Shown: positions 6,086-8,023, counted from the stretch's first letter. The stretch: DNA of 64,000 nt from Escherichia coli O157:H7 (GCF_013167455.1 NZ_CP038328.1), one strand, 5' to 3'. The notes: generated by a model not told the origin, from the sequence alone. Numbers and translations: made by a program.

Positions 6086-8023
6086 TCAGCCACCGGACGC
6101 AGTTCCGTAGTTCACACCGGTGATCACCGCCACTGCCGCGGTACGGCGACGACGCCAGTTGATCCAGCGCTCCGCACGGATGGCCACGCTGCCGGTCTGA
6201 AACATGGAGACCAGTTCCACCGGTGACGGTGTGCTGCTGTCGCTGGTCGGTTCAGACTGCATCTCCAGTGACGCTTCACGGGACATATCCACCGCCACAC
6301 CGCCGTCATCAGCCAGATAAATATCCGGTGCATTCACCAGTACCAGCTGGTCACCCACATACTGGGAGACAATCACCGGCAGCCCCTGGAAGGTCCCGCC
6401 CAGCAAGGTCATGTCCGGATATTCCTTCTGCCCCAGCGCATTTTTACGCATGGACAGCGCCAGGGCATTCGTGCTGGACATCAGCCAGACCGCACCGGTG
6501 GGCTGCAGATTTGCCGTCACAAACTGGCCAAACGCGGCCTCGGCATCCGCATCCGGGTTACCGGTTGATGCCGTGCCCTTCACATCATGGGTGATGGACG
6601 CCGGGGAGACATCCGCCACCGCCGCTTTTTTCGGGTCCACAAAGTCTGTGTCCAGACGCGCCACCACCGCTTCCGCCAGCGCATTACGGACCAGTGCATC
6701 AGCAGCCGGACTGGAAAAACGGATCAATTCTTCCGTCAGTACCGCAATGGCCGACACTTTCGCATGACTGAAGGTGATGGATTCAAAATCAAACTTCGTC
6801 AGGGGTCTGGCCTTACCCTCACCCACCCAGCCGGCAGCACCACCGGACACCTGGGCATGCACGCGGATATTGAACGGCACCTGACGAAGTGCAGGGATCC
6901 CGCCCTGACCAAATCGCCCGATAATGGTCTGCGGACGCAGGTAATCAATAAAGTCCTGCGCATATTCCTGGTATTCAGACAGGCTGCCTGCCCACTGCGG
7001 GTCCGTGGTGGTCCCTGCCCCCACCGCCGATTTCAGGACATGATGCAGACGGCTGTCATCCGGATACTGACGACGGGCCACTTCCAGGGCTTCAGAGCGG
7101 ACACCTTTAGCCGCGGCCAGTGATTTGGCAAAGCGGGCGAAACCAATCCCCTTCTCCAGTTTCTGCTCAACACGGATCACCGGCGCTGAAGCCACCGTGG
7201 CCACATTCCCGTTACCGGCCTGTTTCACCGGCTGTGCCGTGGCGGCCTTACTGGTTTCCAGTTCACGCAGACGCTTCAGGTGCGCATCCACCTGACGGAT
7301 TTCCGCTGCGGTGTTGTCGTAGTGCTCTTCCTCTTCCACATCCAGTGTGCGGCCTTCCTCTGCGGCTTTGTTCATGATCTCCTCAAGGGAGGCTGCCAGC
7401 GCCGCACGCTTGTTTTCAAAACTTTTAATCTGTTCACCAGTATTCATTGCTGACTTTTCCTTATGAAAAGAGGTTATTGACTGTGCCGAAGCGCCGGCAG
7501 AAGATGCGATTTTCACCACCGGTTTCCGGTTGCCGGACGCGGCAGAAAACGGGCGGTCGAAATATTTAATGGTCCGGATGGTGCATTCCGCATTCGCGGG
7601 CACGGTGACGGCAGACACCTCCATCAGCTCCCAGCGCAGAAAATGCAGTCCGCCTCCGTCCAGATAAGTGTATTCATGGGGCCGGAAGCCCACAGAAAGC
7701 CCCCTGACCAGCCCGGTCTTAATGGCAGCCCAGGCCTCATCCAGCCGGGCTGCCATCTGGGAGGGCATCCCCGGCTCCGGCTTCACCAGCATTGCCGTGA
7801 TTTCCAGCCCTTCCCTGACCCGACGCACCGTACACTGGCCTACAGGGCGGGAATGGTCATGCTGCCAGAGAAACGGGATCGTACTGCCAAACTCCGCCCC
7901 CTCCGGCTCCAGGATGTCACCATCCCGATCCGGAGAAGGCGTTGACGCAATCCCGGTGATCACCCGTTCATCCTCACTGAAGGATTTCACCGTCAGCAGG
8001 GAACAGGCCCGTTTAAGAGTCAC
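6086..8023 (-). CDS. prohead protease - major capsid protein in-frame fusion (HK97 family)
   Basis: 645 aa; N-terminal …ITGIASTPSPDRDGDILEPEGAEFGSTIPFLWQHDHSRPVGQ…GLSVGFRP…VSAVTVPAN (prohead protease signature); C-terminal coiled-coil then …GWVGEGKARPLTKFDFESITFSHAKVSAIAVLTEEL… (HK97 capsid signature); internal AAGGA-ATG at 7447. Confidence 0.7.
   Translation of the reverse strand: MTLKRACSLLTVKSFSEDERVITGIASTPSPDRDGDILEPEGAEFGSTIPFLWQHDHSRPVGQCTVRRVREGLEITAMLVKPEPGMPSQMAARLDEAWAAIKTGLVRGLSVGFRPHEYTYLDGGGLHFLRWELMEVSAVTVPANAECTIRTIKYFDRPFSAASGNRKPVVKIASSAGASAQSITSFHKEKSAMNTGEQIKSFENKRAALAASLEEIMNKAAEEGRTLDVEEEEHYDNTAAEIRQVDAHLKRLRELETSKAATAQPVKQAGNGNVATVASAPVIRVEQKLEKGIGFARFAKSLAAAKGVRSEALEVARRQYPDDSRLHHVLKSAVGAGTTTDPQWAGSLSEYQEYAQDFIDYLRPQTIIGRFGQGGIPALRQVPFNIRVHAQVSGGAAGWVGEGKARPLTKFDFESITFSHAKVSAIAVLTEELIRFSSPAADALVRNALAEAVVARLDTDFVDPKKAAVADVSPASITHDVKGTASTGNPDADAEAAFGQFVTANLQPTGAVWLMSSTNALALSMRKNALGQKEYPDMTLLGGTFQGLPVIVSQYVGDQLVLVNAPDIYLADDGGVAVDMSREASLEMQSEPTSDSSTPSPVELVSMFQTGSVAIRAERWINWRRRRTAAVAVITGVNYGTASGG

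Follow-up and report, generated by a model that had tools for sequence, protein, structure and literature searches.

In phage lambda, head protease gene C encodes a protease of the S49/ClpP type and, nested within it, Nu3, a free scaffold; both products are proven, and the capsid protein, E, is encoded by a separate gene. A nested in-frame layout of head genes is also found in the I/Z pair of phage Mu. In phage HK97, the S78-family protease (gp4) and the capsid protein (gp5) are encoded by separate genes, arranged in the order terL (terminase large subunit) - portal - protease - capsid, the protease is targeted non-covalently, and the maturation site of gp5 is Lys/Ser. The Salmonella phage Gifsy-2 has a capsid gene that is reportedly tripartite, with a ClpP-like protease part, and the phage is said to have a decoration protein resembling lambda gpD. 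Herpesviruses combine a protease-scaffold fusion (UL26) with a nested scaffold (UL26.5), a conserved strategy whose rationale has been discussed (PMC11565193), and genes annotated as 'capsid and protease fusion' have been recorded in actinobacteriophages (e.g. PMC6606914). Here we describe a 645-amino-acid (aa) open reading frame (ORF) of a prophage, located in a 64,000-nucleotide (nt) stretch of Escherichia coli O157:H7 DNA (NZ_CP038328.1; hereafter the window, from whose first letter all positions are counted), which encodes a prohead protease and a major capsid protein together and contains a putative internal translation start.

One reading frame joins a protease of the S78/HK97 type, a linker, a delta region and the capsid protein and, judging from comparative signals, two proteins are probably made from it: a 69-kDa form starting at GTG 8023 and a 48-kDa form starting at ATG 7447. 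With somewhat less assurance, we lean towards the broader view that the capsid gene of this family (more than 1000 clusters; about one quarter of complete E. coli genomes) is an unannotated two-product nested gene, in which the ratio of the two starts would set the protease dose and the protease would be a covalent part of the shell subunit. The gene has the following features:

6086-8023, minus strand: full-length ORF for prohead protease, linker, delta/scaffold region and HK97-fold major capsid protein (645 aa, 69.4 kDa; hidden Markov model (HMM) matches, RefSeq)
8029-8034, minus strand: Shine-Dalgarno (SD) sequence AGGAGG of the primary GTG (8021-8023), a perfect motif with a 5-nt spacer, read directly from the sequence
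7598-8023, minus strand: protease domain, residues 1-142, a beta-rich N-terminal domain in the AlphaFold (AF2) model, with the codons of His55 (7859-7861) and Ser110 (7694-7696)
7448-7597, minus strand: disordered Ala/Ser-rich linker, residues 143-192, whose sequence and length vary among relatives (predicted local distance difference test (pLDDT), variable alignment columns, composition)
7458-7462, minus strand: internal SD-like AAGGA, 10 nt upstream of ATG 7447 (duplex energy -6.2 kcal/mol; family conservation)
7445-7447, minus strand: internal in-frame ATG (Met193), the proposed second start (sequence; family conservation)
6086-7447, minus strand: proposed nested gene for the delta region and capsid protein alone (453 aa, 48.4 kDa), deduced from comparative signals and unfused relatives
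7031-7447, minus strand: delta/scaffold-like helical region, residues 193-331 (AF2 model), predicted to be removed by the protease
6089-7030, minus strand: predicted mature HK97-fold capsid protein, residues 332-645, 33.2 kDa (Foldseek, Pfam Phage_capsid, mass)

With lambda C/Nu3 the gene shares an in-frame internal start within a head protease gene, which would give a minor protease-bearing form and a major form with a common C-terminus. It differs in the protease family (S78/HK97 type), in the nested product, here the capsid protein with its delta region, and in that the two products, proven in lambda, are predicted for this gene. Since HK97-type phages build their scaffold into the capsid protein, the latter would itself be the nested product, and the gene would be the HK97-type counterpart of lambda C/Nu3 and herpesvirus UL26/UL26.5. 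As in Mu I/Z, head genes would be nested in frame, and the in-frame internal start codon, ATG 7447, has a ribosome-binding site of its own; in the herpesvirus UL26/UL26.5 pair, by contrast, the short form is made from a separate transcript, and scaffold and capsid protein are distinct. HK97 gp4/gp5 and the E. coli gene have in common the S78 protease family and the capsid fold, along with a set of neck genes (gp10-like, head-tail connector and head closure proteins), and the E. coli protein has a predicted helical region that may, like the N-terminal delta domain of HK97, serve as a built-in scaffold; unlike in HK97, the protease and capsid protein are fused and the portal gene comes after the capsid gene. 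Like Gifsy-2, the prophage is a lambdoid enterobacterial element with a single long gene for a protease, a central scaffold-like region and a capsid protein; however, the protease family differs, and there is no relation at the sequence level.

Single-gene protease and capsid proteins are also represented by the actinobacteriophage fusions, phrog_4523 and NF045541 ('prohead protease/major capsid protein fusion protein'), for none of which is an internal start recorded in the annotation. Membership of the E. coli protein in NF045541 (scaf_prot_MCP2) was rejected at 52.7 bits, compared with a cutoff of 525, over residues 49-267 only; the fusion protein therefore falls into a different family, phrog_617, which covers it from end to end (E = 3.8e-259). 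The RefSeq entry at exactly 6086-8023 (WP_000173079.1) is named 'phage major capsid protein'. The fusion and the gene order are thus already known, the sequence being public and the architecture annotated in phage and E. coli records; as such they are ordinary, catalogued features of a heavily sequenced prophage group, and the remaining value of the locus lies in the internal start.

The initial annotation of the window, produced by a model from the sequence alone, had suggested that the AAGGA-ATG at 7447 could yield capsid protein alone, and a comparison of 69 distinct junctions strongly supports this proposal. Met193 is invariant in all 110 close homologs, in which the preceding linker is variable. 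Among 129 diverse fusions, 118 have a Met no more than 8 residues from the conserved Glu197 column, the Met content of the remaining linker being 0.57%, and seven of the 11 that lack it have Val instead. At the DNA level, each of the 69 junctions has a start codon (65 ATG and four GTG), all four Val residues being encoded by GTG. SD strength was scored as the energy of the anti-SD duplex at positions -18 to -4, with a threshold of <= -4.4 kcal/mol, which was reached at 91% of the junctions, compared with 24% of 1023 other in-frame ATGs and 22% of random codons (Mann-Whitney p ~6e-26); the strength at junctions is on par with that of the primary starts of the same genes. The motif takes varied forms at constant spacing, e.g. 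AAGGAGGG, CAGGAGGG, GAGGAGGG, CTGGAGGG, AAAGGAA and TAAGGAA. In the Enterobacterales clade, the Gly codon within the motif is GGA at 15 of 16 junctions versus 9.3% of Gly codons in those genes (p = 5e-15), and the constraint therefore acts on nucleotides, not on amino acids.

These codon data bear on the idea that the SD-like element and the Met have a role other than initiation, either as a translational pause for protease folding or as a protease-recognised Lys-Glu/Gly ... Met motif. Such a role would suit the location of the element exactly at the domain boundary, and the linker motifs AASG and PGASG do reveal protein-level constraint in parts of the linker. Nevertheless, it leaves unexplained the GTG-only Val replacements, the synonymous preference for GGA (15/16), the SD-to-start spacing and the translation start at this point in unfused relatives, and we regard it as distinctly improbable.

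The mRNA is also less structured at the proposed start: in the 50 nt at the junction, folding is weaker (mean z +1.66, positive in 68 of the 69 junctions) and the GC content lies 13.8 points below that of the rest of the gene (34% versus 60% in the gene at 6086-8023). The start codon, spacing, SD, GGA, GTG-only Val and low structure persist down to about 40% protein identity, including in the Enterobacterales clade, whose members are all fused.

A family search over cluster representatives (clustering at 50% identity) yielded 12137 clusters at E <= 1e-3, of which 1174 also passed E <= 1e-30. Among the top 150 representatives, 128 are full-length fusions of 600-720 aa, and the hosts of relatives include Salmonella, Klebsiella, Enterobacter, Serratia, Pantoea and Pseudomonas. 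In E. coli, the 1.9-kb fusion gene is present in 1251 of 5426 complete genomes, in up to seven copies per genome. To judge from these sequences, the fused state is dominant and long-lived in the family. Several relatives are unfused. In Moraxella phage Mcat9 (locus L004, 5001-6928), a 202-aa protease gene overlaps (ATGA) a 440-aa capsid gene in another frame, and the capsid gene begins with an AGGAG-preceded ATG equivalent to Met193; in two other loci (L036 and L064), an in-frame stop stands directly before the equivalent ATG, and the alignments of two capsid-only clusters (P0258 and P0267) begin at query residue 193. The protease and capsid genes of unfused relatives are neighbours, and the fusion therefore arose from adjacent genes; single mutations can interconvert the two states.

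The separate genes of some relatives, the frequent defectiveness of prophages of enterohaemorrhagic E. coli and the existence of variants with a 43-aa deletion might suggest that the fusion is itself an artefact or a product of decay, i.e. a stop codon lost or a frame shifted in a defective prophage, or a sequencing error. The chance of this is negligible: the identical ORF occurs in the genomes of inducible Shiga toxin (Stx) phages and in the 1251 E. coli genomes, and across more than 100 divergent clusters most are fused and have intact catalytic residues. Reading the fusion as a pseudogene or artefact is ruled out by this family-wide conservation (128/150 representatives full-length).

Taken together, the start codon, SD, codon choice, mRNA structure and unfused relatives provide five independent signals that point to selection for a working initiation site. 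We propose that the 69.4-kDa and 48.4-kDa forms would co-assemble into the procapsid via their shared capsid and delta parts, and that full-length copies would thus bring the protease inside, at a dose set by the ratio of the two starts; covalent fusion would do what is achieved in HK97 by targeting gp4 non-covalently to the delta domain. After assembly, the protease would remove itself, the linker and the delta region, with cleavage near Lys331/Ser332 ('...HHVLK/SAVGAGTTTDPQWAGSL') giving the mature shell protein, about 33 kDa in size. The cleavage was placed there because of the Lys/Ser maturation site of HK97 gp5.

The same gene could instead act as a pure polyprotein, in which only the 645-aa fusion is translated, each subunit carries its own protease, which acts by autoproteolysis, and the AAGGA-ATG is a relic of a separate capsid gene. 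The continuous ORF and its strong primary SD are in keeping with this, as is the descent of the ATG from an ancestral capsid start indicated by the unfused relatives, and a T=7 procapsid could accommodate some 415 copies of a 300-residue internal part (a rough estimate, not a computed value). However, a relic lying in a fast-evolving, indel-rich linker should decay, yet all of the initiation signals have been kept, including in the all-fused Enterobacterales clade. We therefore consider exclusive translation of the fusion unlikely, though a serious possibility.

A number of points nonetheless count against the production of two proteins. In the gene at 6086-8023, AAGGA is only a moderate SD, with a 10-nt spacer that is among the longest that still work, and it could be covered by ribosomes already translating from the upstream start. 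Related sequences entered the statistics as if they were independent, and the p-values for the SD and GGA enrichment thus overstate independence; the low GC content and weak folding could be due in part to the Lys/Asn/Thr-rich composition of the linker. The SD and ATG could have been kept through occasional switching between the fused and unfused states rather than through use while fused. Both the K331/S332 cleavage site and the stoichiometry are suggested by analogy with HK97 only, and neither protein-level or ribosome-profiling evidence of two products in any family member, nor a biochemical account of the fusion, nor a mention of an internal start was found in the literature searched, the coverage of which was incomplete.

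If the internal start is used, (i) thousands of genome annotations miss a major isoform of a virion protein, (ii) HK97-like phages package a small, fixed dose of protease by means of a nested gene, as do lambda, Mu and the herpesviruses, and (iii) the case for nested expression logic as a deep feature of the HK97-fold virus lineage becomes stronger. In practical terms, N-terminal fusion to a fraction of the subunits would offer a natural design for targeting cargo into HK97-type shells.

The 645-aa ORF is a single uninterrupted reading frame on the minus strand, with its GTG start at 8023. The HK97-type prohead protease signature initially noticed at its N-terminus is borne out by a Pfam Peptidase_S78 match (PF04586; residues 48-151, E = 2.6e-7), and the C-terminal half was assigned to Phage_capsid (PF05065; residues 386-635, E = 1.2e-14). 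Pfam gave only Peptidase_S78, Phage_capsid and Phage_capsid_4, with no ClpP or S49 match on the fusion protein. The protease part also matches phrog_80 'head maturation protease' (E = 1.4e-40) and scores 44.1 bits with TIGR01543, below the equivalog cutoff of 59; on these profile scores, it is a member of the Peptidase S78 family but not an equivalog of HK97 gp4. The expected catalytic pair is retained in the diverse fusions (His55 in 128 of 128, Ser110 in 128 of 129), and both residues are invariant in two alignments (A1 and A2). A separate model of this domain has a herpesvirus-protease-like fold, and a PDB sequence search with the fusion protein returned capsid proteins only and no protease. 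Cleavage of the capsid precursor by this domain is predicted from the analogous systems.

Structural features of the remainder of the protein were taken from the AF2 model, based on a 48-sequence alignment (mean pLDDT 77). The succession of an Ala/Ser-rich linker, a helical region and an HK97-fold capsid domain without an intervening stop, as first described for the window, agrees with the HMM matches, the composition and the model. The linker (residues 143-192) contains 9 Ala and 8 Ser per 50 residues, and pLDDT is below 50 across residues 143-191, which predicts disorder. Two short motifs stand out within it, A-A-S-G (161-164) and P/A-G-A/V-S-G/A (176-180), at approximately 7484-7543 in the window. 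Both are kept in most of the 129 diverse fusions, the rest of the linker being variable. As candidate sites of self-cleavage (release), they recall the Ala/Ser sites found in herpesvirus assemblins.

The model places long helices at residues 195-223 and 229-262 (pLDDT ~90) and three shorter ones within residues 293-334. NCBIfam TIGR01554 matches residues 204-584 (80.9 bits, cutoff 27.5), and residues 4-72 of the 'major head protein' of PDB entry 9gyi (385 aa) align with profile positions 199-267. The region is read as delta/scaffold-like because of these helices, the onset of the TIGR01554 match at residue 204 and the 9gyi alignment. The capsid fold extends over residues 346-640 of the model, and Foldseek matched the C-terminal part with the capsid proteins of Bxb1 (E = 2.4e-14), D3, HK97 (Prohead/Head) and T5 (E from 2e-14 to 1e-9; target-normalised template modelling (TM) scores of 0.6-0.75). 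On the modelled structure, the C-terminal part is an HK97-type major capsid protein with the HK97 fold.

Rare E. coli variants of the fusion (P0004, P0005 and P0006) are 600-605 aa long. The only one aligned, P0005 of E. coli O157:H- (602 aa), has an in-frame deletion of 43 aa (query residues 293-335), which takes out the three short helices that lie between the coiled coil of the delta region and the N-arm of the capsid. Such variants probably represent prophage copies that have become defective.

The region 4400-9800 is 100% identical to the corresponding region of the Stx1a-converting phage Stx1_699 and at least 90% identical to 93 deposited genomes of Stx1a, Stx2a and Stx2c phages; among the matching genomes, AP012536 is classified in the genus Sawaravirus. 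No stx ORFs were found between two minus-strand ORFs, one for a Q-like antiterminator (19792-20172) and one of 616 aa resembling nanS-p (14643-16493). The usual stx position is occupied instead by a segment rich in AT (42% GC at 18-20 kb), in which a 237-aa ORF (17947-18660) resembles AraC-family regulators, and this copy seems to carry different cargo. Despite the identity of the head region with that of an Stx1a phage, its classification as an Stx-converting prophage was thus not adopted; the host element is a lambdoid prophage with a long-tailed, Stx-phage-type head module and not demonstrably an Stx phage.

The fusion gene is surrounded by the following elements:

8087-9748, minus strand: terminase large subunit (terL; phrog_9, E = 4.5e-147; RefSeq)
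9745-10308, minus strand: terminase small subunit (terS; phrog_641, E = 2.6e-68)
5820-6041, minus strand: conserved hypothetical 73-aa ORF between the fusion and portal genes, overlapping the portal start by 55 nt (homologs)
4510-5874, minus strand: portal protein, 454 aa (TIGR01537; phrog_12, phrog_2271)
3290-4513, minus strand: 407-aa repeat protein, conserved partner of the portal gene, with which it has an ATGA overlap (translational coupling; phrogs, relatives)
8045-8062, minus strand: GC hairpin and T-run resembling an intrinsic terminator, located after the end of terL (8087) and before the start of the fusion gene (8023) (sequence; relatives)

Further minus-strand genes encode an HNH endonuclease and head-tail connector, head-closure, HK97-gp10-like, tail terminator and major tail proteins. 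The identification of the 4510-5874 product as a portal protein was confirmed with TIGR01537 (E = 3.6e-109; score 365 bits, cutoff 112.05; alignment to positions 2-343 of the 343-position profile). The terL - capsid - portal order is as the initial annotation described it, but the description 'unusual' is valid only in comparison with HK97 or lambda. In a survey of 80 related viral contigs, 59 loci had sufficient flanking sequence, and 58 of these have a same-strand portal homolog downstream; a terL homolog is located upstream in 53 of 66, and the terL - protease/capsid - portal order also occurs in Pseudomonas phage IME307 (48% identity) and in Mcat9. Rather than being a local rearrangement, the arrangement terS - terL - fusion - small ORF - portal - repeat protein is ancestral to this module family and fixed in it. 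The homologs of the 73-aa ORF in Enterobacterales relatives are 51-64% identical to it, and IME307 has two small ORFs at this position.

In the PGAP (Prokaryotic Genome Annotation Pipeline) annotation (locus L001, 4204-6789; window 3290-5874), the portal gene and the 407-aa gene are labelled as one portal pseudogene, described as 'frameshifted', and the 859 positions of phrog_2271 extend over the two genes. A programmed frameshift joining them was considered and is unsupported: the genes are separate in 39 of 43 distinct junctions, mostly with ATGA-type overlaps, and the few 'fused' calls in relatives are truncated or ambiguous. The pseudogene label looks like an annotation artefact, not a true frameshift. 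The 407-aa protein, which has a homolog encoded after the portal in most related loci, includes 3.3 tandem copies of a 162-bp (54-aa) repeat at 3756-4288 (97% identity) and has a weak CBM_5_12 match at residues 357-379 (E = 0.005); it is possibly a head decoration or fibre protein.

The hairpin at 8045-8062 (GAACCGC-TGCG-GCGGTT, followed by TTTTTTATTTT) lies directly upstream of the ribosome-binding site of the capsid gene. Most Enterobacterales relatives and several Pseudomonas-type relatives share this layout of a hairpin, a T-run and '..TTTCTGGAGG..ATG', with stem sequences that differ between them, and the changes in the hairpin are therefore compensatory. Possible roles of this element include a terminator read through by Q-modified polymerase and an mRNA stabiliser.

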